A stretch of DNA of 24,000 bases from Solidesulfovibrio magneticus str. Maddingley MBC34 (GCA_000307955.1 ALAO01000066.1:3935-27934); one strand, 5' to 3'; numbered from the stretch's first letter, positions 1,059 through 18,643 are shown. Translations and numbers: made by a program. The notes: a model not told the origin generated them from the letters alone.

Positions 1059-1750
1059 GGGGCCTCCTCCGGGCCGGCGGCCGCGTCGGGGACGGTTGCG
1101 GCATCGGGCGCGGCGCGCTCCAGGCGGATGATCCGGGCGTCGGGGGCGGCGGCCACCAGGGCCTGGTTGTGGGTGGCCATGAGGATGGCCGTGCCGTGGG
1201 CGCTGAACTGGCGCAGGATGTCGAGCAGGCGCAGGGACAGGTCCCAGTCGAGGTTGCCGGTGGGCTCGTCGGCCAGCATGAGCCGGGGGCCGGCCACCAC
1301 GGCCCGGGCGATGGCCACCCGCTGCTGTTCGCCGCCGGCCAGCTCGGCGCAGGGCCGGTTGGCCAGCTCCGTCAGGCGCAGGGCGGTCAGGGCCGAGCGC
1401 ACCCGGCGTTCGATGCGGGCGGCGGGGGTGCCGCGCACCACCAGCGGCAGGGCCACGTTGTCGGCCACGCTGCGCTCGGGCAGGATTTTGAAATCCTGAA
1501 ACACCATGGCCACGTCACGGCGCAGCTGGTGCAGTTTGGAGAGGCGCAGCGCGGCCAGATCGTGGCCGGCGGCCACGGCCCGGCCCTCCTGGAGCGGCAA
1601 CGAGCCGTGCAGGATGCGCAGCAAGGTGGACTTGCCCGCGCCGGACGGGCCGGTCAGGAAGGCAAAGCCGCCCTTTTCCAGGGAAAAGGTCAGATCGCGC
1701 AATACCTCGCGCCGGCCGAAGCAGTGGCGCAGCCCCGCAACTTCGATCAT
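1055..1750 (-). CDS. ftsE: FtsE-like ABC ATPase
   Basis: 231 aa. Walker [10 protein letters not shown], signature [14 protein letters not shown], Walker [14 protein letters not shown]-loop ATH. ATGA overlaps with recN upstream and ftsX downstream. Confidence 0.9.
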
Positions 1751-3375: not shown

Positions 3376-3386
3376 GGTGGTATGGC

Positions 3387-5459: not shown

Positions 5460-5527
5460 ATGCCAAGGGGTTACCGAGAAATCGGTGACCCCTTTTTCTT
5501 TGGCCCCGTGCCAACTCACCGCCAACG
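5460..5527 (+). repeat. att-like ~65-nt direct repeat unit, copy 1 (intact; contains the tRNA terminator)
   Basis: atgccaaggggttaccgagaaatcggtgacccctttttctttggccccgtgccaactcaccgccaacg. It shares its left half with copy 2 and its right half with copy 3. The core ccgagaaatcg (5474-5484) is invariant in copies 1-3. Confidence 0.75.
5467..5501 (+). terminator. Rho-independent terminator of tRNA-Ala
   Basis: 11-bp stem GGGGTTACCGA / TCGGTGACCCC closed by a GAAA tetraloop, followed by TTTTTCTTT. Confidence 0.8.
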
Positions 5528-5586
5528 CTCCCGTTGGCGCTAACAGCCTCGTCCCCGGCCGGCTGACTCATCTCCTTCCCCGCCCC

Positions 5587-5680
5587 GGGGGCGACCTCTT
5601 GAAAATTTTCAACAGGTTACCTGGAAAAAATTCCAGCAGTCCCCCAAATTTCCTGTCTCGATTTGGACGTTTGGACATTT
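5587..5680 (+). repeat. Palindrome / poly-C / TTGGAC-TTTGGAC module, copy set 1
   Basis: ggggcgacctcTTGAAAATTTTCAA (perfect 14-bp palindrome 5599-5612). CTGGAAaaaaTTCCAG (5621-5636) followed by C5. atTTGGACgTTTGGACattt (5661-5680). Confidence 0.6.
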
Positions 5681-5735
5681 CCGATGCGTTGGCGGCGAAT
5701 GTCCTGGATGCCTTTAAAATGTGAGGCACAGCAAA

Positions 5736-6398
5736 ATGCCAAGAATTTGTGTAATTTTTGATCTGGACGGTACGCTTGTAGACAGCGAGGGGCTTTGTAA
5801 TCAAGCATTCATTGATTTGATCCCGCCATTAACTGAAACGGTAGATTCATTGACAAAACGGTATCGCGGCAAAAAATTAGCCCAGATTCTTGCCGATCTT
5901 GAGGAGCGATATTGTCTAGATTTGCCAGATGAATTTGTAGTACGCTACCGGCAGCGTGTCGCTGAACTTTTTTCTCGGGAGTTGAAGCCTATCCCCGGCG
6001 TTCTCGATATGCTCGAACGCACGGACTTTCCTAAATGTATTGCTTCTAGCGGGCCACTTTTGAAAATTCATCAGGCGCTGCAGGTTAGTGGTCTCGCGTC
6101 TTATTTTAACAATAATATCTTCAGTTCCTATGAGATCAACTCCTGGAAGCCAGAACCAGACTTGTTTCTGTTTGCTGCTAAGGCGATGGGGTTCATGCCT
6201 CGTCAATGTGTGGTTGTTGAAGATAGTGAAATTGGAATTGAGGCAGCCAAGGCGGCGGAAATGAAATCACTCTACTATGTTCCAAATGCTAATGTTCGCC
6301 CGTGGGGAAATGGTGATACAGTTATGTTTGGCGATATGTTGCAACTGCCGCAATTGCTCGCAGCGATGAATGCCAATGGGTTACCGAGAAATCGATAA
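5736..6398 (+). CDS. HAD-IA family phosphatase (YieH / beta-phosphoglucomutase-like)
   Basis: The ATG at 5736 (GAGG 9 nt upstream) gives MPRICVIFDLDGTLVDSE (motif I DxDGT). Other motifs are ..ASSGP.. (motif II), ..WKPEPDLF.. (motif III Lys) and VVVEDSEIG (motif IV). It is collinear by eye with E. coli YieH. Low G+C. The last 9 codons (..NANGLPRNR*) are encoded by repeat copy 2. Confidence 0.85.
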   Translation: MPRICVIFDLDGTLVDSEGLCNQAFIDLIPPLTETVDSLTKRYRGKKLAQILADLEERYCLDLPDEFVVRYRQRVAELFSRELKPIPGVLDMLERTDFPKCIASSGPLLKIHQALQVSGLASYFNNNIFSSYEINSWKPEPDLFLFAAKAMGFMPRQCVVVEDSEIGIEAAKAAEMKSLYYVPNANVRPWGNGDTVMFGDMLQLPQLLAAMNANGLPRNR

Positions 6399-6434
6399 TC
6401 TATTTCTTTGCCGAAGCGTCAACGCGCGCCAACA
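6370..6434 (+). repeat. att-like direct repeat unit, copy 2
   Basis: atgccaatgggttaccgagaaatcgataatctatttctttgccgaagcgtcaacgcgcgccaaca. The left arm matches copy 1 (one mismatch over ~25 nt). The right hairpin arm is replaced. The distal part (caacgcgcgccaaca) matches copy 3. Confidence 0.75.
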
Positions 6435-6469
6435 GGTTTTGCCGTATTATCGCAAAATGGAGATGTAAT

Positions 6470-6783
6470 ATGTATTATGAAATGAGGACCTATCAATTCG
6501 GCTGGGTAAGCTTGATGAATACATTAAGCATTTTGAGACAGTCGGACTTCCTATTCTTTCCAAATACTCGAAGCTGATAGGCTACTGGTATACGGATGTT
6601 GGCGAATTGAATCAGCTTATTCATATTTGGGCGTATGAAAGCCTCGATGAACGAGCCCTGAAACGCGCTGCCTTATACGAAGACAAAAACTGGCAGCAGG
6701 AATTTTTACCAAAGGCCATGTCCATGTTGGAACGGCAAGAGAATAAGATCATGCGTGCCGTTTCTTTTTCACCGATCAAATAA
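6470..6783 (+). pseudogene. NIPSNAP-family protein gene disrupted by a single-base frameshift
   Basis: Hand translation. Frame A from ATG 6470 (GGAG at 6459-6462) gives MYYEMRTYQFG.. and then stops at 6572-6574. Frame B from 6505 gives GKLDEYIKHFETVGLPILSKYSKLIGYWYTDVGELNQLIHIWAYESLDERALKRAALYEDKNWQQEFLPKAMSMLERQENKIMRAVSFSPIK*, with TAA at 6781-6783. Joined, the two frames reproduce the NIPSNAP pattern (M.YE.RTY....GKL.EY...F......). The span is 314 nt (3n-1), so one base is missing near 6500-6505. It is absent from the supplied ORF track. Confidence 0.7.
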
Positions 6784-6790
6784 AGAACTG

Positions 6791-6846
6791 CTTGCCGAGA
6801 AATCGGTGACCCCTTTTTCTTTACGGGGCCGCCAACGCGCGCCAAC
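6791..6846 (+). repeat. att-like direct repeat unit, copy 3
   Basis: cttgccgagaaatcggtgacccctttttctttacggggccgccaacgcgcgccaac. The right hairpin arm and T-tract are identical to copy 1 over 29 nt (gccgagaaatcggtgacccctttttcttt). The left arm is replaced. Confidence 0.75.
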
Positions 6847-6920
6847 ACGAGGTTGTGGCGGGTAAGTGCCAGGGCAGAACCATTTCCCAGCCCACCTGTT
6901 AGACCAAGAAACTATTCCCC

Positions 6921-6956
6921 GGTCGCTTGAATTTTTTTCAAGAGGTCGCCCCCCCC
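6921..6956 (+). repeat. Palindrome / poly-C module, copy 2 (inverted relative to 5587-5612)
   Basis: ggtcgCTTGAAtttttTTCAAGaggtcgCCCCCCCC. The reverse complement of 6931-6956 reads gggggggcgacctcttgaaaaaaat, versus ggggcgacctcttgaaaatttt at 5587-5608. Confidence 0.6.
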
Positions 6957-7026
6957 TTCCGCCTCTTTCGCTCCTGCCAAAAATATTTCCCTTATTTTAC
7001 GCATAGTTGTATAAGAAAAGAAACCA

Positions 7027-7082
7027 CGGTCGCTTGTGGGATTTTCAAGCGATCCCCCCCCCCATTTTGGACATTTGGACTT
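7027..7082 (+). repeat. Palindrome / poly-C / TTGGAC-TTTGGAC module, copy 3
   Basis: ggtcgCTTGtgggattttCAAGcgatCCCCCCCCCattTTGGACaTTTGGACtttt. It is a direct repeat of 6921-6956 (104-nt spacing) and of the 5621-5680 arrangement. Confidence 0.6.
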
Positions 7083-7150
7083 TTCGGGGGCATCCTTGAA
7101 AAAAATCTGGCCCGTTTCCTGCTGACGGCAATCTTGGCTGACCCTGATGC

Positions 7151-7236
7151 AGGGAAAGCCGCAGAAACTGCCCTATGGAGTCGCAGGGGCTGTGATTTTA
7201 CTAGGGGCGGTTGGTCTTCCTGGTCCTGCCCCGTGT
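7151..7236 (+). repeat. ~85-nt direct repeat, copy A
   Basis: agggaaagccgcagaaactgccctatggagtcgcaggggctgtgattttactaggggcggttggtcttcctggtcctgccccgtg. It aligns by eye with 7415-7498 at roughly 70 percent identity. Confidence 0.55.
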
Positions 7237-7414
7237 CGCCCATTGGGCCAAATGTCACTCCATGCGCCGGCAAGTTTGATGTAATATTCTAAATTTACAT
7301 GATTTACTTGTCAGTGACAAAGGTGACTTTGCAAATAAGGGCGCTGAGAAATCCCAGGTGAAGACCACTGCCCCGTTCCTCGTCGCCGGCATCGACTTTG
7401 ACTGATCTAGCCCA

Positions 7415-7498
7415 AGGGAATGGCGCAGGAACTGGCCTATTGAGTCATAGGGCCACGATTTCTACCCGGCCCCATTGGCCTTCCCGGTCCTGCCCCGT
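7415..7498 (+). repeat. ~85-nt direct repeat, copy B
   Basis: agggaatggcgcaggaactggcctattgagtcatagggccacgatttctacccggccccattggccttcccggtcctgccccgt. It is collinear with copy A, 264 nt downstream. Confidence 0.55.
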
Positions 7499-7600
7499 CC
7501 TCGTCCCCGGAGCCGCCCCGGGCACCCCCTGGAAACGCGCGGTAGGACCCCTTCCTGGGACGTTCCCCTGGGCCTGGGGGATTGGTTCCCCCGGTCCTGG
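7490..7600 (+). repeat. Third, most decayed copy of the ISL3-remnant-related sequence
   Basis: 7525-7590 (ccccctggaaacgcgcggtaggaccccttcctgggacgttcccctgggcctgggggattggttccc) aligns by eye with 19215-19290 (cccctggccccgggattcgcgcggcacacccccgtcctgggatttttgcctggcccgcccggggctgggttccc). Confidence 0.3.
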
Positions 7601-7739
7601 TCCCGCTCCAGGGTCGACCCCCTAGGATGAAAGCCCGATTTCCCTTGGGCTTGGGCCATCGTCAGGAATTGCGCATAAATTTCTCAGCGAACTTACTGAG
7701 ATTTTTCCCGCCTGCCTGAATCCATCTCAAAGATAGCAC

Positions 7740-7768
7740 TAGACAGCGCTGGGCCGCGAGCCTATAAT
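7740..7768 (+). promoter_or_regulatory. Candidate sigma70 promoter TAGACA-N17-TATAAT
   Basis: TAGACA at 7740-7745, an exact 17-nt spacer, and consensus TATAAT at 7763-7768. It lies in a non-coding stretch just downstream of a small hairpin plus T5 (7687-7712). Confidence 0.4.
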
Positions 7769-7815
7769 GTTAGTCGTATCCCTAGTGAAGGTTGTGAGCA
7801 ACCCTAGCGGAGGCG

Positions 7816-7838
7816 ATGCCAATGGGTGAATCAATCGT
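7816..7838 (+). repeat. Partial fourth copy of the att-like repeat left arm
   Basis: atgccaatgggt is identical to 6370-6381. The following ..a..atcg loosely matches ttaccgagaaatcg. Confidence 0.45.
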
Positions 7839-7985
7839 CGGAGAGTCTTCCTCGCAGTAGAGCACTTGAAGGCCAGTAAGTAATATAACTTGGCAAGCTG
7901 CATGTGTAGCAAACACAAGCTCTACGTTCATAGTCGAGGCGCAATCGTCAACCCATAAGTCTTTTTTCAGCAGCATAAATTTACT

Positions 7986-8020
7986 GGCCCCGGCTTGTGC
8001 AGTCGGGGCCTTTCTTTGTT
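7986..8020 (+). terminator. Rho-independent terminator
   Basis: Stem ggccccggct / agtcggggcc (10 bp including one G-U), loop tgtgc, then tttctttgtt. Confidence 0.65.
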
Positions 8021-8040
8021 GCGTTGGGTGGGCTGAAGGA

Positions 8041-8280
8041 ATGCTTGGTTCGCTCTCGGATGAACTTGTGGACACTTCGGGTACGTCGGTCTCGCAGGAT
8101 CGCAAGACGCTCCGTTGCGTCAAGAAAAGTTTTAATTCCGGCGGTTATGCGCAATTTTGGCGGCAATCAGCTCTGAAATCGAGTTCAAGAGCCGCGCCGG
8201 CCATGGTCAGCCCGGGGGTATCCCGTGTCCCCGGCGGCACGCTTCCCCTGGTCCCTGGGATTCGCGCGGCAGGGGGCCTC
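8041..8280 (+). mobile_element. Decayed ISL3-family transposase N-terminal remnant (copy A)
   Basis: 8208-8276 (cagcccgggggtatcccgtgtccccggcggcacgcttcccctggtccctgggattcgcgcggcaggggg) is ~80 percent identical by eye to 19177-19246, including an exact 15-mer gggattcgcgcggca. The upstream translation MLGSLSDELVDTSGTSV loosely parallels ILGLSDPWFVADVVLDTAGGRV of copy B. Confidence 0.4.
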
Positions 8281-8650
8281 TCTAGCTGTTGTTGGGTCCC
8301 TCTTGCCTAGCGTTTCTTAGGATGATTTGCTATCGGTCTGCAGTCGTATTTGGGCAGGAGCGCACCATTTTCTTCCGACTGTTTTCTTATAGAATCTCCG
8401 GAGAAAATTTGTTTTTAGTGCATATTGCCTTGTGGCTGATTATCGGAGCAGTGTCTGTAGGGGTGTCTGTACAATGTCGCTCCCACGAAAAGAGAGCCAG
8501 GACTTATGGCCTGTGATACATTGCTGTCTATGCGTTTATTGCGGTGGGCTGATCGTTTGAAGTGGTGCAGTCATGGATGGGAGCGCTTTTTGGGAGCGCG
8601 TCGCAGGGTGATGCTGCTTACTCGCAGTGTAAAACAACGGAGGATCTGTT

Positions 8651-9460
8651 GTGGAAACGCTTCAAGATTCTGGGGTTGAAAACTTTGACAGCTGTTTGGC
8701 TGATCGAGTGCTTGAGCAAATACCGACGCCGGTTATGGCTGTAAACAACAACTTTGAAATTATTTTTATGAATGGGGCGGGTCGGGATATCCTGGGTGTC
8801 TCGTTTGAAGCCATAAAAGGGAAGCACTGTTACGAGATGCTCCGTTCCATTCATTGCGGCACGCCTGAATGTTGTATGCGCAAGGCAATGGATAATGGAA
8901 GATCGTTTGTAGCCCGCAATGAATTGTCGATCGATGGCCGTAAGATTCCTATCGAGTACTCGGCGACGCCGCTGAAAGATGACGCCGGAAATATTGTCGG
9001 TGGCCTCGAATACATTCTCGACATTACGGAACGGGTCCAGGCGGAGAAGAAACTTCGAGAGCAAAGCCGGACCATCCAGGAAATATCCACCCCGGCGATC
9101 AGCCTCTGGGAAGGGATTGTTGTGCTGCCCGTGGTCGGCGTCGTGGATTCGATCCGGGCCAAGCAGATGATGAGCGCCATGTTGGCCAAGATCAAGGAAA
9201 CTTCCGCTAAGATCATCATCTTGGACATTCAGGGTGTGGCCGCCGTCGACACGGCCGTTGCCAACCATTTGATAAAGATTACCAAGGCGACAAAGCTCAT
9301 GGGCTGTCGTTGCATTATCTCCGGCATCTCCCCGGCGGTGGCCGAAGCCATTGTGCAGCTTGGCATCGATCTTGGCACGATTGCGACGAACTCCACCTTG
9401 AAAGATGCGCTAAGTGATGCATTCGCCATGTTGCAGTTCGATGTGAAAAAAATCAAATGA
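8651..9460 (+). CDS. RsbR-like stressosome sensor: N-terminal Cys-rich PAS domain plus C-terminal STAS domain
   Basis: 269 aa, GTG start at 8651 with GGAGGA 7 nt upstream. PAS region: PVMAVNNNFEIIFMNGAGRDILG...GKHCYEMLRSIHCGTPECCMRKAM...LEYILDITERV. The linker plus STAS region (EISTPAISLWEGIVVLPVVGVVDSIRAKQMM....IIILDIQGVAAVDTAVANHLIKITKATKLMGCRCIISGISPAVAEAIVQLGIDL) is collinear with Bacillus RsbRA C-terminal domains. Confidence 0.85.
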   Translation: METLQDSGVENFDSCLADRVLEQIPTPVMAVNNNFEIIFMNGAGRDILGVSFEAIKGKHCYEMLRSIHCGTPECCMRKAMDNGRSFVARNELSIDGRKIPIEYSATPLKDDAGNIVGGLEYILDITERVQAEKKLREQSRTIQEISTPAISLWEGIVVLPVVGVVDSIRAKQMMSAMLAKIKETSAKIIILDIQGVAAVDTAVANHLIKITKATKLMGCRCIISGISPAVAEAIVQLGIDLGTIATNSTLKDALSDAFAMLQFDVKKIK

Positions 9461-9531
9461 GTGACGGTGCCACTGGGGTCTTGAGTGGACAATAAAACAT
9501 CTCCTGTGTCCTGCCGTGACAGGCTAAGCAT

Positions 9532-10005
9532 ATGAAGCAACCCCAAGGGCGTCGCACGAGCAGTGCCCTCTACACGATCGATGGCGTCTTGATTGCCCCT
9601 GTTCCGGTGGACTGCGATGATTCCAGTTTGCATCGCCTCAAGGGCAACATTCTGGACACGGTCCATGGCGGTTCTTGTCGCAGTGTGCTGCTCGACGTTT
9701 CCGGACTCGAATGGATGGACCTGTCCATGTACGCCGCCCTGGTCGAGACCGTGCGCCTCGTGGGGCTGCTTGGCGCCCGTTGCGTTTTCACCGGGTTCCA
9801 GCCTGGTGTCGTCTCCGCCTTGATCGACATGGATATTACAGGCGATGCCCTGGAATGCGTGGCCACGATGGAAGAAGGTCTGGCGCTCTTGCGTGGAGAC
9901 CGGCTGGCCCGTGAAGCTGGCGATGACGACCAGAGCGAAGCGCTGGAGAATTTGGATGATGACGCGGCGGAGCTGCCCCAGGGGAGTGCCGGTGTCCAGT
10001 CCTGA
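9532..10005 (+). CDS. RsbS-like single-STAS stressosome scaffold protein with an acidic C-terminal tail
   Basis: 157 aa. ..IDGVLIAPVPVDCDDSSLHRLKGNILDTVHGGSCRSVLLDVSGLEWMDLSMYAALVETVRLVGLLGARCVFTGFQPGVVSALIDMDI.. matches the RsbS pattern (DxS-type phospho-acceptor region, GIQP-like motif). Confidence 0.8.
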   Translation: MKQPQGRRTSSALYTIDGVLIAPVPVDCDDSSLHRLKGNILDTVHGGSCRSVLLDVSGLEWMDLSMYAALVETVRLVGLLGARCVFTGFQPGVVSALIDMDITGDALECVATMEEGLALLRGDRLAREAGDDDQSEALENLDDDAAELPQGSAGVQS

Positions 10006-10405
10006 TCTCCTGCCGGAACAGCGCCTTGATCTTCTGGAGTCGGCCGATAATGCCCTCGCTATCAGCGTTGCGCGGCATTTCGCCCGGGAGATGGGCTTTG
10101 ACGACTCGCAGGAATTTCTCATCGCCACGGCCGTGTCGGAACTGGCCACCAACATTTTGCGCTATGCCGGCAAGGGGCAGATGACCTTCCGGGTCGTTGA
10201 GGCCGGGGGGCGCTTGGGTATGGAAGTGGTGGCGATAGACGGCGGCCCGGGGATCGCGGACATCGAAAAAGCCATGGCGGATCACTACAGCACCGGCGAC
10301 AGCCTGGGACTTGGACTGCCCAGCGTGCGGAGGATCATGGACAGTTTTCAAGTCGAATCACGCCCTGGGCTGACCATCTGCGTTGGGCGGAAGTGGAGGG
10401 AGTAA
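9992..10405 (+). CDS. RsbT-like serine protein kinase (HATPase_c_2 / anti-sigma-factor-type)
   Basis: The preferred start is GTG 9992 (AGGGGA 7 nt upstream), overlapping the rsbS end by 14 nt. In-frame alternatives are 9986 and 9955. Motifs are ..ARHFAREMGFDDSQEFLIATAVSELATNILRYAGKG (N box), AIDGGPGI (G1) and GLGLGLPSVRR (G2). At 137 aa it is similar in size to B. subtilis RsbT. Confidence 0.8.
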   Translation: MSSPDLLPEQRLDLLESADNALAISVARHFAREMGFDDSQEFLIATAVSELATNILRYAGKGQMTFRVVEAGGRLGMEVVAIDGGPGIADIEKAMADHYSTGDSLGLGLPSVRRIMDSFQVESRPGLTICVGRKWRE

Positions 10406-10408
10406 GTC

Positions 10409-10999
10409 ATGCCCAGAGCGGACTGTTGCTGTCTTGTCCGAGGGCTGCCCGATGAATATCCGGCCTGCGGCGATGTTGGCGTCCTCGTTGTCGATACGGA
10501 GGCGGCATTTGTCGCGCTGGTCGATGTGCTGGGCCATGGCCGTGAGGCCGACGCCCTGGCAACGGAAATAGCCGCTTTCTTGCGGGACAAGTCAGGCGGG
10601 GAACTGCCTGAGGTCATGCAGGCGCTTCATGAGCATCTCAAGGGCTCACGGGGAGCTGTCGCGTTTCTGGGACGTCTTGATTTGCCGACGGGGCTGTTTG
10701 CATATGTCGGCATCGGGAATATCAGCGCCAAGGTCTTTGGGCCTCAGCCCGCGCTCCGGTTGGGCTCCAGGGATGGCATCGTCGGGTATATGATGGGCAC
10801 GCCCAAACTGCAGTCCGTACGCATTGCCCCGAGGGACATCGTGCTGCTTTGTTCCGATGGCATCCGCGACAATTTCGATCCCCTGGAGTTCCCCGGGATC
10901 TTCCGGGGCGAAGCCTCGGACATCGCCGAGACGGTGCTCCAGACCCTGGCCAAGGGTAACGACGACGCGTCCTGCCTTGTCCTGAGGTACCTTCGATGA
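10409..10999 (+). CDS. RsbX-like small PP2C/SpoIIE-type feedback phosphatase
   Basis: 196 aa. CGDVGVLVVD....ALVDVLGHGREA (the RsbX-like GD...D.LGHG motif), LLCSDGIRDN, NDDASCLVL. It starts 3 nt after the rsbT stop and ends in an ATGA overlap with the next gene. Confidence 0.75.
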   Translation: MPRADCCCLVRGLPDEYPACGDVGVLVVDTEAAFVALVDVLGHGREADALATEIAAFLRDKSGGELPEVMQALHEHLKGSRGAVAFLGRLDLPTGLFAYVGIGNISAKVFGPQPALRLGSRDGIVGYMMGTPKLQSVRIAPRDIVLLCSDGIRDNFDPLEFPGIFRGEASDIAETVLQTLAKGNDDASCLVLRYLR

Positions 11000-13900
11000 C
11001 GCACCACCTGGGGAGTTTCGCCATTGACGCGGTCGAAACCTTTAACGCTTCCCGCAAGAAAATCTTGCGTCTGGCCCAGGCGTTGGGCTTTGACGCCATC
11101 GACGCCGGTCGGCTGGCTTCGATTTTTTCAGAGATCACCCGGCCCCATTCCGGCGGAGGCAGTGTCCGCGTCGCCCTGTCCTTGGTGGTGGAGAGCCAGG
11201 GCACGGTCCTGGCCTTGCGTTTCCCCCATCCCCTGAGCGGACCCTCCCAGGCGCTGCTCTCCCGGTTTTTCGACGCCTTGGAGCCGATGCCGTCCGAAGG
11301 GGGGCTGGCCGGATTCGAGGCGCGCAAGCGTCTTCCGCCGACCGGCCTGGCCCTGACGGAACCGTTTCTGGACGAGCTGCGTGAACTCCTGTCCACCCCG
11401 TCCCGCGAAGAGTTGCTCCTGGCGCTGAAGCACAAAAACGCCGCCCTGGAACGGGAAGTGGCTGAAAGACGCCTGGCCGAGGAAGCGCTTCGCCGCAGCG
11501 AATCGCGCATACAGGCCGTCCTGGAAGGGACGCCGGACGCCTTGCTCATGGTCGATGCCGACGGCACGATGACGTACGCCAACAGCCAGGCGGAGAAGAC
11601 CTTCGGCTACGGGCGACAGGAATTGCTTGGACAACCCATTGCCATGCTCGTGCCCGAGGCGCAGCGTCCCGGCCATGATGCGCGGGTGCGCCATTTTTTT
11701 GCCGAGGACCGGACGCGAGAAATGGGCATGGCCGCCAACCTGTATGCCCGGACCAAGGACGGGCGGCGGATCGCCATCGACCTCAAGCTCTCCCCGCTGC
11801 ATACCGAAACCGGCCGGCAGGTCATCGCCTCCATTCGGGACATTACCGAGCAGAAGCAGGCCCTGGAATCGATCCGCCAATTGTCGCTTGTGGTGGAGCA
11901 AAGCCCGGCCTCGGTCGTCATCACGGATCGGGCCGGCCGCATCGAATACGTCAACCCGGCGTTTACCCTCGCCACCGGCTATGCCCGCGAAGAAGTGTTG
12001 GGGAGAAACCCCCGGATTCTCAAATCCGGTCAGACGCCCAGCGAGGTCCATGAGGCCTTGTGGAGCACGATCACCGCCGGCAACATCTGGCGCGGCCTGC
12101 TCATCAACCGCCGTAAGGGGGGCGAGAATTTCTGGGAACAGACGGCCATCGCGCCCATCAGCAATCTTGATGGCGTTGTCAGTCATTTCGTGGCCATCAA
12201 GGAAGATATCACGGATCGCATCCGCTACGAGGAAGAGATCAAGCGCCAGCGGACCCTGCTGGATACCCTCATTAACGCCCTGCCCCTGGTGATTTACGCC
12301 AAGGACGCCAACGGGGCGTACCAGGTCGTCAACGACTCGTTGGCCGCCCTGGTCGGCCTGCCTCGTGAGGCTGTGGTCGGGCGTACGGCCTATGACGTGT
12401 TCCCCAAGGCCACGGCCGACGCGATCCACCAGGCCGATGCCCTGGCCCTGAAGTCGGAACAGCCCACCTACGCCGAGGACTGGCGGACCTATCCGGATGG
12501 ACGTCGGGCGATTTTTCATATGACGCGGGTCCCGCTTCGCAACGAAATCGGGCAGGCCATCGGCCTTGTCGGGGCCTTTCTCGACGTCACGGAAAGCAAG
12601 GAAGCCGAAATGGCCATCCGCTGCGCCCAGGCGGAAATGACCCAGATTTTCAATTCCGCAGCTGGCGGGATGCGGGTGATCGACCGGGACGGGACCGTGG
12701 TCAAGGTCAACGACGCCTTTGTCGCCATGACCGGATACTCCCGGGAAACAGTCGTCGGCAAGCGCTGCCATGAGTATTTCGGCAGCCAGGATTGCCACAG
12801 CCGGGCCTGTCCGCTGGCGCGGATTCTTGACGGCAAGGAGCGGCTGGAATTGACGGTGCCCAAAAAGCGCAAGGACGGGACCACCATTTATTGCGACGTC
12901 GGCGTGACCAGGCATCTGTCGCCGGACGGGGAACTCCTCGGCATCATCGAGGACTTCCGAGACGTCACGGCCCGGGTCGAAGCCCAGCGGCGGATACACG
13001 AAAGTGAAGTCAAATACCGGGAGCTGGTCGAACGGGCCAAGAGCATCATCCTGAAACTCGACCTAGACGGAAACATCACCTTTTTTAACGAGTACGCCCA
13101 GGCGTTCTTTGGTTTTGGCGCGCAGGAGATTCTCGGGCGTCCCATCGTCGGCACAATCGTGCCCGAGTCGGAAAGCGGCGGACGCGACCTGCGCCAGATG
13201 ATCCGGGCCATCATCTGCGATCCCGTGGCCTACGAGAGAAACGAGAACGAGAACGTCTGCAAGGACGGCAGCCGCGTCTGGATCAGCTGGACGAATCAGA
13301 TTTCCCTGGACGAAGCCACCGGCGAGCCGTGCGGTCTGCTGTGCATCGGGCTGGACGCCACGGAACGGAAAAAGGCCCAGGACGCCTTGGGCGACGCCAT
13401 GGAGGTGATCTCCGGCAGCATCCGCTACGCCAGCCGTATCCAGCGGGCCATTTTGCCTCAGCCCGAAGACTTCGAGGCGCTGTTCGCCCGCCATTTTGTC
13501 GTCTGGTCCCCCCGGGACGTGGTTGGCGGCGACATCTATTGGCACGCCAAATGGGGCGAGGGGCATGTGTTTGTTCTGGGCGACTGCACCGGACACGGCG
13601 TGCCCGGCGCGTTTATGACGTTGATTGCCGCGGGCGCCCTGTCCCGGGCCATCGGGGAGGTCGCGCCGGGGCGAGCGGGGCAGCTCATGCAACGCGCCCA
13701 TCAGATCATCCAGACCAGTCTCAATCAGCATCTTGACGGCGGCGAATCCGATGACGGCATGGAGCTTGGCATGTGCTATGTCGCGCCCGACCGCCAGAGC
13801 ATGCTGTTCGTTGGCGCGCGGTTCCCATTGTTTCTTGAGGCTGATGGCGACATCATCGAAATCAAGTCGGACAAAAAGGGAATCGGCTACCGGGGCATTG

Positions 13901-14163
13901 CCTATGATCAGGAATATCATGAGCATCTGGTCCCGCTGCGCCCTGGGCTGCGGCTGTATTTGGTCAGCGACGGCCTGTTTGACCAGGTCGGGGGCGAGCG
14001 GCGGCGGGGATTTGGCAAGAACCGCTTCAAGGACTGCCTCAGAGCCATTGCCGGCGAGCCCTTTGACCAGCACGGCGCACGCCTGTTCGCCGCCTTGCAG
14101 GCCTTCCAGGGCGACGAGATTCGGCGGGATGACGTATCCATCATGGGTTTGGAGTGTTGCTGA
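10996..14163 (+). CDS. 1055-aa multi-PAS PP2C (SpoIIE-family) serine phosphatase; RsbU/SiaA-equivalent
   Basis: N-terminal ~135-aa domain of unclear type, then a coiled-coil, then five PAS units by eye (from about aa 165). PAS2 is of the GRNPRILKSGQ..W.G...NRRK.G..FW type. PAS4 has GKRCHEYFGSQDCHSRACP. The C-terminal PP2C carries RYASRIQRAILP, VGGDIYW, VLGDCTGHGVPGAFM, DDGMELG, LVSDGLFDQ and RRDDVSIMGLE. Confidence 0.85.
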   Translation: MTHHLGSFAIDAVETFNASRKKILRLAQALGFDAIDAGRLASIFSEITRPHSGGGSVRVALSLVVESQGTVLALRFPHPLSGPSQALLSRFFDALEPMPSEGGLAGFEARKRLPPTGLALTEPFLDELRELLSTPSREELLLALKHKNAALEREVAERRLAEEALRRSESRIQAVLEGTPDALLMVDADGTMTYANSQAEKTFGYGRQELLGQPIAMLVPEAQRPGHDARVRHFFAEDRTREMGMAANLYARTKDGRRIAIDLKLSPLHTETGRQVIASIRDITEQKQALESIRQLSLVVEQSPASVVITDRAGRIEYVNPAFTLATGYAREEVLGRNPRILKSGQTPSEVHEALWSTITAGNIWRGLLINRRKGGENFWEQTAIAPISNLDGVVSHFVAIKEDITDRIRYEEEIKRQRTLLDTLINALPLVIYAKDANGAYQVVNDSLAALVGLPREAVVGRTAYDVFPKATADAIHQADALALKSEQPTYAEDWRTYPDGRRAIFHMTRVPLRNEIGQAIGLVGAFLDVTESKEAEMAIRCAQAEMTQIFNSAAGGMRVIDRDGTVVKVNDAFVAMTGYSRETVVGKRCHEYFGSQDCHSRACPLARILDGKERLELTVPKKRKDGTTIYCDVGVTRHLSPDGELLGIIEDFRDVTARVEAQRRIHESEVKYRELVERAKSIILKLDLDGNITFFNEYAQAFFGFGAQEILGRPIVGTIVPESESGGRDLRQMIRAIICDPVAYERNENENVCKDGSRVWISWTNQISLDEATGEPCGLLCIGLDATERKKAQDALGDAMEVISGSIRYASRIQRAILPQPEDFEALFARHFVVWSPRDVVGGDIYWHAKWGEGHVFVLGDCTGHGVPGAFMTLIAAGALSRAIGEVAPGRAGQLMQRAHQIIQTSLNQHLDGGESDDGMELGMCYVAPDRQSMLFVGARFPLFLEADGDIIEIKSDKKGIGYRGIAYDQEYHEHLVPLRPGLRLYLVSDGLFDQVGGERRRGFGKNRFKDCLRAIAGEPFDQHGARLFAALQAFQGDEIRRDDVSIMGLECC

Positions 14164-14258
14164 CGGCGGCTTGAGGAATAGAGGAGAGCGCATTCGATTT
14201 TGCTTCAGCAGCGGAGCCAGCCCAAGATGGCCAATATATCAGGTCGTGAGGAGGAACG

Positions 14259-14804
14259 ATGCTCGCGGAAAATATGCTTCAATTCAGAAATCAGCTTCAA
14301 GCGCACAACATATCTTTTTGCTACAGCGGCTTCATGACAGAAGATCTTCTGGTCGGCATTGGGAATACCATACGCAAGAAGCTTGAGATGTCTGAGCTGG
14401 ACAAGAAGCGGTGCAAGACTGTTTTCTCCGTTTTTGTCGAGCAAATGCAAAATGTCATTCGCTACTCTTCGGAACGTGAAACGCATACCGACAATACCGA
14501 TCTGAGCTTCGGCATCGTCGCTGTCGGCGAGGATGCCGGCCGCGTATTTGTCACCTGCAGCAATGTGGTCGACAACGCCAGCGCCTGCAGCCTCAAGAGC
14601 GTGTTGGGCAAGATAAAGTCCTTGGACAAGGATGGGCTGAAAGCTCTCTGGAAGGAAACGCTGAAAGGCGATTCGCCAGAAGGCAGCAAAGGCGCTGGCG
14701 TAGGGTTTATTGATATCGCCAGAAAAGCAGATGGCGGAATAGAGTATGATTTTGCGCCCATTGATGGCGGGCGCTCCTTTTTTACCATCAAAGCTTTTAT
14801 CTAG
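14259..14804 (+). CDS. SiaB-family protein kinase-like (HATPase-like partner-switch kinase)
   Basis: 181 aa, GAGGAGGA SD. ..ISFCYSGFMTEDLL.....VFVEQMQNVIRYS....IVAVGEDAGRVFVTCSNVV....LKALWKETLKG...SKGAGVGFIDIARKA....GRSFFTIKAFI is collinear, from memory, with P. aeruginosa SiaB (..GAGLGLIDIARKS..). Confidence 0.75.
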   Translation: MLAENMLQFRNQLQAHNISFCYSGFMTEDLLVGIGNTIRKKLEMSELDKKRCKTVFSVFVEQMQNVIRYSSERETHTDNTDLSFGIVAVGEDAGRVFVTCSNVVDNASACSLKSVLGKIKSLDKDGLKALWKETLKGDSPEGSKGAGVGFIDIARKADGGIEYDFAPIDGGRSFFTIKAFI

Positions 14805-14821
14805 AGGGATAGGTTGTACCT

Positions 14822-15202
14822 ATGAGCATCTTGCGTATCGAGTCCACACAGAGAACCCCTGAAGTGATTTTTGATTTTGCTAACAACGTTTTTCATCTTC
14901 GGGGAGAATCCTATCCGGAAGATGTCAAGGAATTTTACGGCCAGCCCATAGGACGCCTTGAGGGGCACTTGGAGGGCCTGACGAACGCCGAGATCCGTTT
15001 TACCTTCGAATTTGTGTATTTCAACAGCAGCACAGCGAAAATACTCATGAATCTTTTTGACATGCTCGAAGAGACAGCGGCGAGAGGCAATACGGTCCTC
15101 GTCGTCTGGGCTTATGAAAAAGATGACGACAACATGGAAGAGCTGGGCGAGGAATTCGGCGAAGAATTGAGCCGGGCAACATTCAGTATGCTTGCAGTGT
15201 AA
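14822..15202 (+). CDS. SiaC-like DUF1987 regulatory phosphoprotein
   Basis: 126 aa. MSILRIESTQRTPEVIFDFANNVFHLRGESYPEDVKEFYGQPI.....FEFVYFNSSTAKILMNLFDMLEE....VVWAYEKDDDNMEELGEEFGEEL matches the DUF1987/SiaC pattern (T..TP.V.FD...G.L.I.G.S.PEN...FY.P...W......L.Y.NTSS.K). The acceptor position aligns to Ser69 (15026-15028). Confidence 0.8.
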   Translation: MSILRIESTQRTPEVIFDFANNVFHLRGESYPEDVKEFYGQPIGRLEGHLEGLTNAEIRFTFEFVYFNSSTAKILMNLFDMLEETAARGNTVLVVWAYEKDDDNMEELGEEFGEELSRATFSMLAV

Positions 15203-15206
15203 AGAC

Positions 15207-17270
15207 ATGAGCTTCGACGCCTACCAGACAGAGAATAGCGTTATTGCGCGTGGTGAAGCCGTCCTGAAAGACCCGGCGTCTGCGGACATCGCCTCGGAAT
15301 ATGAGAGTTTGCTGTCGAGCTACAGGAAACTACTGAAGATTACGGACCGATTGGTCCGAATGAGCGATCGATTTGAAGAGCGGCTTAAAGTCGCCAACAT
15401 CACGATTCAGAAGCAGCAGCTGGAACTCGAAAAAGCCAACGCGCAATTGGCGGAATACGCCAATCATCTGGAAGACAAGGTCAAGGAGCGCACCAAGGAG
15501 CTTGTCGCGGCCCAGGCAAAACTTGAGCGCCTTGTCCGCCTCGGCATCGCCTTGTCCATGGAGCGCCGGCATGCCCGGTTCATGGAAATGATTGTGGATG
15601 GCCAGAGGGAGCTGGCCAATGCCGACGGCGGTATTCTTTTTTCCCGCGGCGAGGACGGCAACCTGGCCTGTGAAATCCTCCGTTTCGACAGTCTTGCGTT
15701 GCGTCAGGGCGGCCTGTCAGGGCAAAGCGCGCCCGCGATGCTGGTCGCCGTGCGGGATGCCGCCGGCCGGCCTTGCTATCACAACCCCATCGCCCATGCG
15801 CTGCTGACGGAAAGAACGATCAATATCCCGGATATCTACAGCTCCACCGACTTTGATTTCAGCGACCTGTTCACCTTTGACCAGCGCCATGCCTACCGAA
15901 CCCAGTCTTTTCTGGCCGTGCCGCTCAAGCCCCGGCAAGGCGAGGTCATGGGGGTCCTGGTGCTGCTCAATGCCCATGCAGGCGATGACGGGCGAGTGGA
16001 TGCCTTCAGCGAGGAAGCCCAGCGATTTATCGAGGTCTTGGCCTCCCAGGCTGCCGTCGCCCAGGACAACCAAAACCTTTTGGACACCCAGGCCAAGCTT
16101 CTTGACGCCATCATCAAGGTGATCGCCGGGGCTATTGATACGAAATCTCCCTACACCGGCGGGCACTGCGCCAGGGTCCCGGTCATCGGGGCCATGTTGG
16201 CCAAAAGCGCCTGCGAATGTCGCGACGGGACGTTTGCCGATTTTGATTTAAATGAAAGTGAATGGCACGAATTTCATCTCGCCTGCTGGTTGCATGATTG
16301 CGGAAAAGTGACAACACCAGAGCATATCGTTGACAAGGCAACCAAGCTTGAGACGGTATATAATAGAATTCATGAGATACGCATGCGTTTTGAAGTATTG
16401 CTTCGCGATGCCAAGATAGAATGTCTCGAAGCAATGCGCGACAAGAGTCAAGATGCAAATGCGAAGGAGGTGTTCGACCAGAAGGTGCAAGCCTTGTGCG
16501 ATGATTTTTCTTTCGTCGCCGCCTGCAATGTCGGGGGCGAATTTATGAGTAACGATAAAATCGAACGCTTGCAAAACATTGCCCAAAGGAAATGGCTGCG
16601 GCATTTTGATGATCGAATTGGTCTGTCCCAAGCCGAACTGCAGCGTTGTCCCCCGACGCAAGACACGGTGTTGCCGGTTGTCGAGCACCTTTTGGCCGAC
16701 AAGGCCGAGCATCTTTTTATGCGTCCCAAGAATGTCGGACTGCTCTTCGATCCAACAAATCATGGGATAAGCATGGACATCCCAAAACATCTGTACAATA
16801 TTGGAGAGCTTTACAACCTCAAGATTCCCCGTGGGACTCTAACCAGGGAAGAGTATTTCAAAATAAAAGAGCATACCATCTATACGATGATCATGCTCCA
16901 GCAGCTTCCTTTTCCGAAGGAGCTCGGGCGAGTGGCGCAAATCGCCGCAGCCCACCACGAGACTGTGGCTGGAACAGGATATCCTCGTGGGCTTGATGTA
17001 AAAGATCTGCCGGTGCAGTCCAGAATTCTGGCCATTTCCGATATTTTTGAAGCCCTGACCGCTTCGGACCGGCCTTATAAAAAAGCTAAAACACTTAACG
17101 AAGCAATTAAGATCATGAGTGTGATGAGGAATGAACAACATATTGACGCCGATCTTTTTGATCTATTTTTGACAACCGGCGTGTATAAGTGCTTCGCTGA
17201 GAAATATCTCCGTCCTGAGCAAATTGATGCGGTCAATATTGAATTATATCTCTCAAGAAGCATTGCTTGA
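15207..17270 (+). CDS. N-terminal helical domain - GAF - HD-GYP c-di-GMP phosphodiesterase (HD-GYP split by a large insertion)
   Basis: Start chosen at ATG 15207 (MSFDAY..), 4 nt after the siaC-like stop, matching the MGFDAY.. start of the neighbouring kinase. The track start at 15192 is a TTG. The GAF region is ..ADGGILFSRGEDG...SFLAVPLKPRQGEVMGVLVLLNA... HD-GYP motifs are SPYTGGHCARV, WLHDCGK (HD at 16293-16298), AAAHHETVAGTGYPRGL (HHE 16953-16961; GYP 16977-16985) and ISDIFEALTASDRPYKKA. Confidence 0.85.
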   Translation: MSFDAYQTENSVIARGEAVLKDPASADIASEYESLLSSYRKLLKITDRLVRMSDRFEERLKVANITIQKQQLELEKANAQLAEYANHLEDKVKERTKELVAAQAKLERLVRLGIALSMERRHARFMEMIVDGQRELANADGGILFSRGEDGNLACEILRFDSLALRQGGLSGQSAPAMLVAVRDAAGRPCYHNPIAHALLTERTINIPDIYSSTDFDFSDLFTFDQRHAYRTQSFLAVPLKPRQGEVMGVLVLLNAHAGDDGRVDAFSEEAQRFIEVLASQAAVAQDNQNLLDTQAKLLDAIIKVIAGAIDTKSPYTGGHCARVPVIGAMLAKSACECRDGTFADFDLNESEWHEFHLACWLHDCGKVTTPEHIVDKATKLETVYNRIHEIRMRFEVLLRDAKIECLEAMRDKSQDANAKEVFDQKVQALCDDFSFVAACNVGGEFMSNDKIERLQNIAQRKWLRHFDDRIGLSQAELQRCPPTQDTVLPVVEHLLADKAEHLFMRPKNVGLLFDPTNHGISMDIPKHLYNIGELYNLKIPRGTLTREEYFKIKEHTIYTMIMLQQLPFPKELGRVAQIAAAHHETVAGTGYPRGLDVKDLPVQSRILAISDIFEALTASDRPYKKAKTLNEAIKIMSVMRNEQHIDADLFDLFLTTGVYKCFAEKYLRPEQIDAVNIELYLSRSIA

Positions 17271-17323
17271 AAGAATAAGTGCATGGTCGAGCGGCCTGTC
17301 GGCTAGGACTGGAGGCAAGTCCG

Positions 17324-18643
17324 TTATTGGTGCTGTTCGTAAATGGGTAAACTGATCGTCACGGCGGTCCCTTCTTCTTCGGAAGAGGCGACGTCGATGG
17401 TTCCGCCCTGGGCCTTGGTCATGAGCCAGGCGCTATACGTCCCAAGCCCCGTTCCCCTGGATTTCCCGTGTGTTGCGTATTTCTTGAAAAAAGTGGAAAG
17501 GACATGATTCGGCAGCGGGGCCTTGTTCCTGATGCATAGCGAAGCCATTTGTTCGTTTTGTATGGTTATGGAGATGCACTCTGCCGGCAGCGCCGCCTCG
17601 ACGGCATTTTTCAGAAGATTCATCACAATATTATAGCATAGTATGTTGTTGCCGTTGACATATAGCCTTGCCGCTGTGTCCGGAGTGTTGCCTTCATGGG
17701 AAAAGGCGATGTTTGCCACGTCTTTTCCAAAAGAGAATTGTATATCCGCTATGACTCGTTTGGTGATTGCGACAATGTCAACAGGCGCTGGTAAAAATTG
17801 GTAGCTGCCGCGCTCCATTTGAAACATGTCGCGGGAGAGATCAATCTGTCGCAGCATGTCTTCCCCGGCGTTGCTTATATAGGAGAGGTACCGCTCCTGG
17901 TCTTGTGAGAGATTTCCTCCTTCGAAAATAAGGGGCGGCAAATTGATGATGGCATTGAGGGGGCCTCTTAGGTCATGTTGCATGATTCGTATGACGTCTT
18001 CCCGCAGTTGTTCCAATTCTTTTCGATGGGAAATGTCGTAAATACTCCAGAGAAAGCCTGATTTATGGTTTTGCGGGTTCAAAAGCTTTCCCGAAAGGCT
18101 CGCCCAGAAGTGGCCATTGTCGGCTGTGCGAAGCTGGCATTCAATGTTGACAATGCCTTGCCCATTCGGTGTTGGGAGTTTGTTGTTTGAGAGGAAGCAG
18201 CAGTCGTCCGAAGACAAGACGAATGCATCAAGCTTGTTGTTGCGCAGCATATGGGCTTCGCATCCAAGCATTTTTAATAATGTATCGTTGTGTCTATAGA
18301 CAAGGCCGTCGCAGTTGACAAGCGCTACACCGACTGTGCTGTTGTTGAAGATTGTTTCAAACTCAAGTATTTTTTCCTCAAGCAACTTCTCTCTTAATTG
18401 AAGGTCGCGATTTGAAGCGTCAAGGCATTCCTTTTGTTGTTTTATTGTCGTATTCGCTTCTTTTATGGCCGAGCCCATCTTATCGCTAATGCGAACAAGG
18501 CGTTGCATGGCGGAAAATATTTTTTCATATTCATTGCAAAGCGTGGTATACTCCAGAGCAAGGTCTGGCACTTCTGTCCGGTTTGCTATGCTCTTGGCAT
18601 GGGTGATAATTTCCTTTTCGTGCCGGTATGCATCAAAGCCCAT
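17324..18643 (-). CDS. Soluble sensor histidine kinase: shared N-terminal helical domain - PAS - DHp - HATPase_c
   Basis: 439 aa, GAGGTG SD. The N-terminus is paralogous to the HD-GYP protein. PAS: FNNSTVGVALVNCDG.....WSIYDISHRKELE. H-box: IMQHDLRGPLNAI. N box: NLLKNAVEA. G boxes: HGKSRGTGLGTYSA. No TM segments. No response regulator lies in the window. Confidence 0.85.
   Translation of the reverse strand: MGFDAYRHEKEIITHAKSIANRTEVPDLALEYTTLCNEYEKIFSAMQRLVRISDKMGSAIKEANTTIKQQKECLDASNRDLQLREKLLEEKILEFETIFNNSTVGVALVNCDGLVYRHNDTLLKMLGCEAHMLRNNKLDAFVLSSDDCCFLSNNKLPTPNGQGIVNIECQLRTADNGHFWASLSGKLLNPQNHKSGFLWSIYDISHRKELEQLREDVIRIMQHDLRGPLNAIINLPPLIFEGGNLSQDQERYLSYISNAGEDMLRQIDLSRDMFQMERGSYQFLPAPVDIVAITKRVIADIQFSFGKDVANIAFSHEGNTPDTAARLYVNGNNILCYNIVMNLLKNAVEAALPAECISITIQNEQMASLCIRNKAPLPNHVLSTFFKKYATHGKSRGTGLGTYSAWLMTKAQGGTIDVASSEEEGTAVTISLPIYEQHQ

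Follow-up and report, generated by a model that had tools for sequence, protein, structure and literature searches.

In Bacillus subtilis, the stressosome pathway RsbR/S/T/X-RsbU-RsbV/RsbW-SigB leads to a sigma factor, and its PP2C phosphatase RsbU carries RsbU_N, an N-terminal four-helix domain that binds RsbT. In stressosomes, RsbR and RsbS form a large pseudo-icosahedral complex in which RsbT is sequestered. Most RSTX-linked outputs and stressosome clusters outside the Firmicutes lack RsbU_N, and the mechanism of their coupling is a stated open problem (PMC9237108). Outputs other than sigma factors have been described: a PP2C type was noted for Methylomicrobium (PMC9237108), and in the MtR/MtS/MtT/MtX-MtG system of Moorella thermoacetica, as cited in PMC7647112, the direct target of the RsbT-like kinase is a diguanylate cyclase. 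Another partner switch is SiaABCD of Pseudomonas aeruginosa, whose phosphoprotein SiaC is so far known only as a diguanylate cyclase activator. The DNA considered here is a stretch of 24,000 nucleotides (nt) from a metagenome-assembled genome (MAG) of Solidesulfovibrio magneticus str. Maddingley MBC34 (GCA_000307955.1, ALAO01000066.1:3935-27934), referred to as the window, with positions counted from its first letter. Its positions 8651-18643 hold a cluster in which stressosome genes precede those for a PP2C, a SiaB/SiaC pair, an HD-GYP protein and a histidine kinase. The cluster is likely to form one signaling cascade assembled from two partner-switch modules, leading from the stressosome through the PP2C and SiaB/SiaC to the HD-GYP protein and the kinase.

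The reading as one cascade is drawn from observed gene order, domain identities, N-terminal fold, motif homology and co-occurrence: the genes are closely spaced or overlap, their linkage is kept in other genomes, the N-terminal domain of the PP2C (the N-domain) tracks the stressosome, and a stalk module tracks SiaB/SiaC. The first-pass annotation of the window had proposed a four-tier cascade, and family assignment, rsb-sia conservation and a literature check all came out in its favor. It had placed eight co-directional genes at 8651-17270 and a convergent histidine kinase gene at 17324-18643, where the open reading frames (ORFs) are all found. Its assignment of the products of 8651-10999 to RsbR/S/T/X and of 14259-15202 to the SiaB and SiaC (DUF1987) families holds in Pfam and NCBIfam profile searches of the window products, and the RsbV/RsbW/sigma tier that it reported absent was not found. 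No RsbV/RsbW-like gene turned up among the window ORFs and no additional STAS or HATPase_c_2 gene among those of at least 50 amino acids (aa), and no sigma-factor domain was seen in the flanking ORFs scanned. The matches have E-values, and the cluster a conservation across genomes, that go far beyond what chance would produce.

The ORF coordinates also bear out the five tight junctions described at first pass. The end of rsbS at 10005 overlaps the GTG start of rsbT at 9992 by 14 nt, with a Shine-Dalgarno sequence, AGGGGAG, at 9980-9986, 5 nt upstream of this GTG. The rsbT stop at 10405 and the rsbX ATG at 10409 are 3 nt apart, and rsbX overlaps the PP2C gene in an ATGA at 10996-10999. A gap of 17 nt lies between the siaB stop at 14804 and siaC at 14822, and one of 4 nt between the siaC stop at 15202 and the ATG of the HD-GYP gene at 15207; this ATG is preferred over TTG 15192 because all orthologues begin with MSFD. 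In the 95-nt gap between the PP2C gene and siaB (14164-14258), no terminator-like site was found, and a GGAGGA precedes the siaB ATG. The promoter and terminator scan was uninformative, with counts at or near shuffle expectation.

The adjacency of rsb and sia genes is not a one-off juxtaposition, since it recurs in Desulfovibrio inopinatus and in at least seven metagenome contigs. The identical eight-gene array is found in D. inopinatus (locus L001) and in one contig (L002), whose PP2Cs differ in how many PAS domains they carry. Three further loci (L003, L093, and L094) show a permuted array, siaB-siaC-GAF-HD-GYP-histidine kinase-rsbR-S-T-X-PP2C, in which the orthologous kinase gene is co-directional and lies right after the HD-GYP gene; L095 has the permuted array without the kinase. 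L092 and L096 have rsbRSTX-PP2C-siaB-siaC and then, in place of the HD-GYP protein, a class III nucleotidyl cyclase. The linkage thus survives both re-ordering and output swapping, which argues for function rather than accident.

The first four genes, like all eight of the array on the plus strand, encode a minimal stressosome set. The RsbR-like sensor and co-antagonist (8651-9460, 269 aa; PAS_4, 6.8e-19; STAS, 9.1e-15) combines an N-terminal sensor domain with a C-terminal STAS domain containing phosphorylatable Thr/Ser positions. The STAS domain keeps the motifs VDT and SGISP in an alignment of 10 orthologues, at positions which we take to be the equivalents of T171 and T205 of B. subtilis RsbRA. 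The RsbS-like protein (9532-10005, 157 aa; STAS, 3.7e-07) is a single-STAS scaffold with an acidic C-terminal tail, and its best solved relatives are RsbS proteins, first that of Vibrio vulnificus (7o0i_a; E value of 2.3e-15) and then those of Listeria and Bacillus. The RsbT-like serine kinase (9992-10405, 137 aa; HATPase_c_2, 3.3e-11) is a small kinase with intact ATP-binding boxes, as the N box ELATN, the G1 box DGGPGI, and the G2 box GLGLGL are invariant in four orthologues. The RsbX-like feedback phosphatase (10409-10999, 196 aa; SpoIIE, 4e-12) is a single-domain PP2C encoded within the module, with the metal motifs DVLGHG at residue 39, SDG at 149 and DDAS at 185. In every related locus, rsbX lies directly 3' of rsbT.

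The fifth gene encodes a PP2C of 1055 aa, which the first-pass annotation had described as RsbU/SiaA-like. The SiaA-like part of this description applies to the catalytic domain, as aa 792 to 1051 match positions 398 to 654 of the SiaA model NF038263 with 210.6 bits; owing to its different N-terminal architecture, the protein as a whole stays below the cut-off of 700. The catalytic domain (13396-14163; SpoIIE, 9.6e-18) shows the motifs DCTGHG at residue 863, SDG at 991, and DDVS at 1045. It is preceded by a coiled-coil linker and five PAS domains (11401-13395; TIGR00229, 1.3e-104), and the number of PAS domains varies among the orthologues, which have total lengths of 671, 797, 913, and 1055 aa. 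The N terminus is not RsbU-like: RsbU_N was rejected, with no Pfam match even at an E value of ≤10 in four orthologues, and a degenerate RsbW/SpoIIAB-like pseudokinase domain of ∼135 residues (10996-11400) takes its place.

Cysteine clusters occur in PAS domains of both sensor-bearing proteins. The N-terminal PAS domain of RsbR contains C60, C69, C74, and C75 (aa 60 to 75, window positions 8828-8875, HCYEMLRSIHCGTPECC), and the fourth PAS domain of the PP2C has the pattern C-x9-C-x4-C at aa 591 to 605 (12766-12810, RCHEYFGSQDCHSRAC). These clusters may form a metal, Fe-S, or redox-sensing site, which in an anaerobe would hint at the signal sensed by the cascade.

The N-domain has no Pfam family, and a search of its sequence profile against the PDB returned noise only. 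An AlphaFold2 (AF2) model with a predicted local distance difference test (pLDDT) score of 77 shows a GHKL-like alpha/beta layout, beta-alpha-alpha-beta-beta-alpha-beta-beta, and the 14 best Foldseek matches of this model in the PDB are without exception the anti-sigma kinases SpoIIAB, RsbW, or UsfX (E values of 5e-5 to 1.6e-2; probability of 1.0). The domain lacks the G boxes, and the Asn of the N box is replaced by a conserved Arg49, which marks it as a pseudokinase. A word-indexed protein search gave a single match. The domain is rare, as an exhaustive representative search found 51 representatives at an E value of ≤1e-3 among 1.84 billion proteins, in which the domain is always N-terminal. 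Its fusion partners (n = 37) include 23 HisKA kinases, 6 PP2Cs, 2 cyclases, 1 GGDEF protein, and 1 HD-GYP protein.

The distribution of the N-domain follows that of the stressosome. Of the PP2Cs in 86 SiaC loci, only those linked to a stressosome carry it, and the stand-alone SiaA-like PP2Cs are without it. A metagenome scan with the N-domain was based on a 7-sequence subset, the 24-sequence alignment being too diverse, and in all 12 of the loci recovered, the N-domain gene lies immediately 3' of rsbX; rsbT, rsbS, and rsbR precede it in the 11 loci whose contig reaches far enough. The outputs fused to the domain in these loci are a PP2C, a hybrid kinase, or a cyclase. Including L001 to L003 and the window, the N-domain follows directly behind rsbX in 16 of 16 loci, whatever output comes after it. 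This constancy, together with the lack of RsbU_N in RSTX-linked outputs, makes the pseudokinase a concrete candidate for the receiver of the stressosome signal, in place of the RsbU_N of Bacillus, and thereby a testable candidate answer to the question of how stressosomes without RsbU_N signal.

Some of the N-domain loci show further architectures. Directly after rsbX, the domain is fused to a class III cyclase in a protein of 421 aa (L088:3390-4655) and to a T2SSF-like segment in one of 259 aa (L091:7995-8774). In L098, an N-domain hybrid kinase is followed by a REC-HD-GYP protein, resembling the D1/D2 layout of V. vulnificus. The RsbR-type protein of this locus (L098:4644-6398) has, as its N-terminal sensor, a [FeFe]-hydrogenase large-subunit-like domain and 4Fe-4S ferredoxin motifs fused to STAS and stands ahead of RsbS/T/X, the pseudokinase-hybrid kinase, and the REC-HD-GYP protein; as a stressosome sensor, it seems to be of an unusual type.

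The second partner switch consists of a SiaB-family protein kinase (14259-14804, 181 aa; DUF6272, 3.8e-41; NF038262, 189.6 bits against a cut-off of 85) and a SiaC-family phosphoprotein (14822-15202, 126 aa; PF09345, 4.4e-38, 130 bits against a cut-off of 24.5). B193_0758 of S. magneticus Maddingley MBC34 matches the SiaB-like product with 100% identity. SiaB and SiaC both exceed their family cut-offs and remain below those of the equivalog models, with 101 bits against 225 for SiaB and 89.6 bits against 150 for SiaC, which identifies them as family members and not as orthologues. An exact-sequence look-up of the window SiaC found no record. Against P. aeruginosa SiaC (6KKO and 7E6G), it gives an E value of 3.5e-16, with Ser69, the predicted phospho-site, opposite Thr68. 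Read against the published contacts (PMC8457831), SiaC keeps the SiaD-contact residues Q10, Y31, Y66, N68, S70, M76, D80, L108, and E111.

The adjacent HD-GYP protein is composed of an N-terminal helical stalk module (15207-15476) and GAF and HD-GYP phosphodiesterase domains (15477-17270; GAF, 6.7e-13; HD_5, 5.5e-45). The catalytic motifs HD (363-364), HHE (583-585), and GYP (591-593) are all intact, as the initial annotation held, and conserved in 13 GAF-HD-GYP orthologues. The best solved relative is the HD-GYP structure 4mcw, matched in two stretches (2.8e-27). The stalk module has no Pfam family, and a word-indexed protein search returned truncated fragments only; its AF2 model (pLDDT of 86) shows a short helix and then a single long one from aa 28 to 140. 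It contains the putative SiaC-binding motif R48-L-V-R51-M52-S53-D54-R55-F56-E57 (15348-15377), which aligns with K77-V-A-R80-I81-S82-D83-R84-Y85-Q86 of SiaD, the SiaD sequence having been recovered via an orthologue and the register compared manually with the published contacts. In the crystal structure, these SiaD residues are SiaC contacts, with S82 and Q86 hydrogen bonded to the phospho-site Thr68 (PMC8457831). The homology of the motif and its residue-by-residue correspondence to the SiaC contact positions of SiaD support a step from SiaC to the HD-GYP protein, which would rest on docking of the kind seen in SiaD. A degenerate second motif start, KLERLVRLGIALS, is located at the stalk/GAF junction (aa 106 to 121, 15522-15569); every HD-GYP orthologue retains this stretch, which has no Ser-Asp pair and may be a relic of a second SiaC site.

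The stalk module accompanies SiaB/SiaC well beyond this locus. SiaC relatives were sought with a SiaC-alignment scan of species-representative genomes, and the best 80 of at least 215 confirmed relatives were surveyed. SiaB lies upstream of SiaC in almost all of these loci, and most have a SiaA-type PP2C in the vicinity. The module is present on a gene adjoining SiaB/SiaC in 62 of the 80 genomes, and most loci negative in the hidden Markov model (HMM) search encode a SiaD-like GGDEF protein with one copy of (R/K)xxR(I/L)SD or two copies 32 residues apart; this pattern has a background of 13 in ∼1,970 other ORFs. The 74 module proteins beside SiaB/SiaC comprise 30 class III cyclases, 23 GGDEF proteins, 13 GAF-HD-GYP proteins, and 8 histidine kinases, with no variation at Asp54 and at least 90% conservation of Ser53.

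The same module is found on the convergent PAS-HisKA-HATPase_c histidine kinase (17324-18643, minus strand, 439 aa; Pfam), where it spans 18374-18643 and contains the motif RLVRISD at 18473-18502 (module HMM, 9e-37). The N termini of the HD-GYP protein and the kinase (∼90 to 94 residues) are 35% identical (E value of 8e-17). The shared module makes the kinase a likely second SiaC target, and judged by its sequence, it is probably a second SiaC output. No response regulator was found among the ORFs neighboring the kinase. Several module-bearing outputs also occur around one SiaB/SiaC pair elsewhere, with two in L022 (10378-13598) and L027 (2146-3081 and 10384-11412) and two or three across these loci and L034, the pairs being cyclase plus kinase or HD-GYP plus cyclase; such sets support multi-output SiaC switches. 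Giant SiaA-type PP2Cs of 1,900 to 2,400 aa, with several periplasmic-binding-protein domains (SBP_bac_3), dCache, and many PAS domains, lie upstream of SiaB/SiaC-cyclase sets in L004 (2734-10035), L006 (3254-9067), and L027 (3241-9435).

A mechanism can be proposed for the cascade, in which the binding and phosphotransfer steps, their signs, and the compound that the HD-GYP protein hydrolyzes are taken by analogy from B. subtilis RsbU and P. aeruginosa SiaABCD. In the first tier, the minimal RsbR-RsbS-RsbT-RsbX set would sense its signal via the Cys-rich PAS domain of RsbR, with RsbX resetting the complex. The activity or release of RsbT would then engage the pseudokinase N-domain of the PP2C and activate the SiaA-like phosphatase, to which the five PAS domains could add further inputs. 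In the third tier, the SiaB-like kinase would phosphorylate SiaC at Ser69 and the SiaA-like PP2C domain would dephosphorylate it. Unphosphorylated SiaC would finally dock on the RLVR(M/I)SD stalk helix of the dimeric GAF-HD-GYP protein and of the PAS kinase and change the activity of both. If docking activates, as it does for SiaD, the result would be lower cyclic di-GMP (c-di-GMP) together with a phosphorelay output, and RsbX and SiaB would reset the two switches.

Several observations at different tiers weigh against this cascade, and the first of them concern the release of RsbT and its meeting with the PP2C. The phospho-acceptor of B. subtilis RsbS is Ser59, at the start of helix 3. In the window RsbS, D63-L64-S65 (9718-9726) places Leu64 in the column of the phospho-Ser of the Bacillus and Listeria motif IDS, with Ser65 adjacent; D. 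inopinatus has Arg-Val here, with no Ser or Thr at either position, and V. vulnificus RsbS has a Gly in the canonical column. As the canonical Ser is replaced, phospho-release may proceed differently in this clade than in Bacillus. The N-domain model was built on a two-sequence alignment and has a pLDDT of 77 and a template modeling (TM) score of ∼0.46. A comparison with the RsbT alignment in hhalign is not significant (probability of 1.7%, with only the expected helix pair aligned), so that the fold assignment comes from Foldseek. In addition, an interaction between VvRsbT and VvD1 went undetected (PMC9237108), which cautions that RsbT may not bind such outputs stably.

A competing explanation keeps the same wiring with another coupling; it is considered unlikely here but is the most serious of the alternatives. 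The pseudokinase would mimic RsbT and bind the STAS domains of RsbS or RsbR, and the PP2C would be held on or silenced by the stressosome and released once RsbT phosphorylates the scaffold, with no activation by free RsbT. The closest folds of the N-domain have been solved with STAS antagonists (SpoIIAB-SpoIIAA, RsbW-RsbV, and UsfX-RsfB), and RsbT belongs to the same fold family. However, GHKL anti-sigma kinases are dimers, which makes a heterodimer of RsbT and the pseudokinase equally plausible. The undetected contact in V. vulnificus (PMC9237108) fits the STAS-binding variant.

At the lower end of the cascade, the catalytic domain of the HD-GYP protein is interrupted after the HD motif and before the next conserved His by an insertion of ∼170 aa (aa ∼380 to 545, window positions 16300-16840), which is probably shared by all 13 GAF-HD-GYP proteins adjoining SiaB/SiaC, as these are of similar length. 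The stalk-module profile matches the SiaD stalk in the PDB weakly (7e6g_A; E value of 0.32), and this match is lost with a narrow 48-column motif profile. The kinase gene is convergent in the window, and the kinase is absent in L001, L002, and L095. It is rather improbable that the cascade is real and its terminal enzyme is something other than a SiaC-activated c-di-GMP phosphodiesterase, be it that SiaC inhibits, that the substrate is another cyclic dinucleotide such as 3'3'-cyclic GMP-AMP (cGAMP), or that the enzyme is mainly a GAF-controlled receptor and the kinase the real output. In favor of this, besides the insertion, the second-best solved relative is the cGAMP-specific HD-GYP protein 5z7c (E value of 3.8e-19), the stalk carries one SiaC motif compared to two in SiaD, and the outputs of sister systems are cyclases of the cyclic AMP/cyclic GMP type. 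Against this stand the intact and conserved HD, HHE, and GYP motifs and the fact that 4mcw, the closest solved structure, is c-di-GMP active.

A last reservation is that the survey of SiaC loci missed D. inopinatus, so that its frequencies are rough. RsbR/S/T/X are present within 10 kb in 0 of the best 80 loci, and GAF-HD-GYP follows SiaB/SiaC without rsb genes in 9 of them. These nine belong to Magnetococcales and to MAGs of Desulfovibrionaceae, Rhodospirillaceae, and Gammaproteobacteria. SiaB/SiaC with GAF-HD-GYP is thus recurrent without a stressosome, and the stressosome input is a rare feature. The nine sets, which have a sensor PP2C of their own, would suit two independent neighbors, an RsbRSTX module with an unlinked output and a self-contained PAS-PP2C/SiaB/SiaC/HD-GYP system driven by PAS only, as would the 95-nt gap that separates the PP2C gene from siaB and the drop in guanine-plus-cytosine (GC) content from one to the other (0.63 to 0.50). 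Nevertheless, this is highly improbable, as rsbX and the PP2C gene share the ATGA overlap, the N-domain is confined to loci with rsbRSTX (16 of 16) and is seen on none of the stand-alone SiaA-like PP2Cs, and the linkage survives permutation of the gene order. A single cascade remains the preferred reading.

A broader interpretation, put forward tentatively and falling somewhat short of likely, is that the cluster contains two portable plugs, with the pseudokinase as a general stressosome receiver and the (R/K)xxR(I/L/M)SD helix as a general SiaC receptor. The first may link stressosomes lacking RsbU_N to a PP2C, hybrid kinase, or cyclase, which would resolve the question posed for Vibrio-type stressosomes, and the second may place four unrelated classes of enzyme, GGDEF, HD-GYP, class III cyclase, and histidine kinase, under one phospho-switch. 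If this is true, one SiaC would drive two outputs at once in this locus. A docking motif common to cyclases, phosphodiesterases, and kinases would also allow SiaC targets to be predicted from sequence.

The cluster is flanked by housekeeping genes (ftsEX, recN, a HAD phosphatase, a Zn-ADH, and acrB). The ∼3 kb upstream of rsbR (5462-8650) are AT-richer and contain the HAD phosphatase gene (5721-6398) and small ORFs at 6927-7292, 7782-8123, and 8041-8310 without family matches. The 527 nt before rsbR (8124-8650) have no gene call and probably hold the promoter. The GC content is 0.70 in ftsX-recN (186-4164), 0.46 at 6001-7000, 0.51 in rsbR, 0.61 to 0.63 from rsbS through the PP2C gene, and 0.48 to 0.53 from siaB through the kinase gene. 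These steps suggest that the cluster is a mosaic or was put together horizontally, or that the MAG is chimeric at the left end of the window.

The first-pass annotation knew of no described example of this architecture, and literature searches on SiaC/DUF1987 with stressosome or HD-GYP found nothing relevant. The literature searched, whose coverage does not extend to Chen et al. 2020 (EMBO J) and Pané-Farré 2005/2017, contains no description of a stressosome combined with SiaB/SiaC, no action of SiaC on HD-GYP, cyclase, or kinase targets, and no pseudokinase receiver.

Compared to the B. subtilis SigB pathway, the cluster has the same sensor-STAS RsbR, STAS RsbS, HATPase_c_2 kinase RsbT, and PP2C RsbX, and a downstream PP2C likewise feeds a partner switch of a kinase and a phosphoprotein. 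It differs in that rsbX directly follows rsbT and that the PP2C has an RsbW-like pseudokinase and five PAS domains instead of RsbU_N. The second switch is SiaB/SiaC (DUF6272/DUF1987) and not RsbW/RsbV, and the outputs are enzymes instead of a sigma factor.

P. aeruginosa SiaABCD (6KKO and 7E6G; PMC8457831 and PMC7647112) shares the SiaA-like PP2C catalytic domain, the SiaB-family kinase, the SiaC phosphoprotein with a retained phospho-site (Ser69 compared to Thr68), and a target with the (R/K)xxR(I/M)SD stalk motif. In contrast to the membrane/HAMP input of SiaA, the input here is a stressosome with cytoplasmic PAS domains. The adjacent enzyme is a GAF-HD-GYP protein predicted to degrade c-di-GMP, whereas SiaD is a GGDEF diguanylate cyclase. 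The cluster adds a histidine kinase, its target enzyme carries a single copy of the motif where SiaD has two, and SiaB and SiaC fall below the equivalog cut-offs.

The RsbRSTX-D1/D2 system of V. vulnificus (PMC9237108 and PMC10014275) resembles the cluster in the position of rsbX directly after rsbT, the lack of RsbU_N in the downstream protein, and a predicted end effect on c-di-GMP degradation. Its middle tier is a His-Asp phosphorelay and its sensor a heme globin, in contrast to the Ser/Thr partner switch and PAS sensor found here. As in Moorella, the stressosome would act on a c-di-GMP enzyme with no sigma factor, but two further tiers, the PP2C and SiaB/SiaC, are interposed, and the enzyme is a predicted phosphodiesterase. 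HsbR/HsbA-HsbD and BgrU/W/V-BgrR also employ a small phosphorylatable protein that binds and modulates a c-di-GMP enzyme; those proteins are canonical STAS proteins with GGDEF targets and no stressosome input. Non-sigma stressosomes and SiaABCD are thus both known, and their combination is new within the literature searched. In this undescribed chaining of two partner switches, the stressosome would control second-messenger breakdown via SiaB/SiaC instead of a sigma factor, which widens the known repertoire of both systems.

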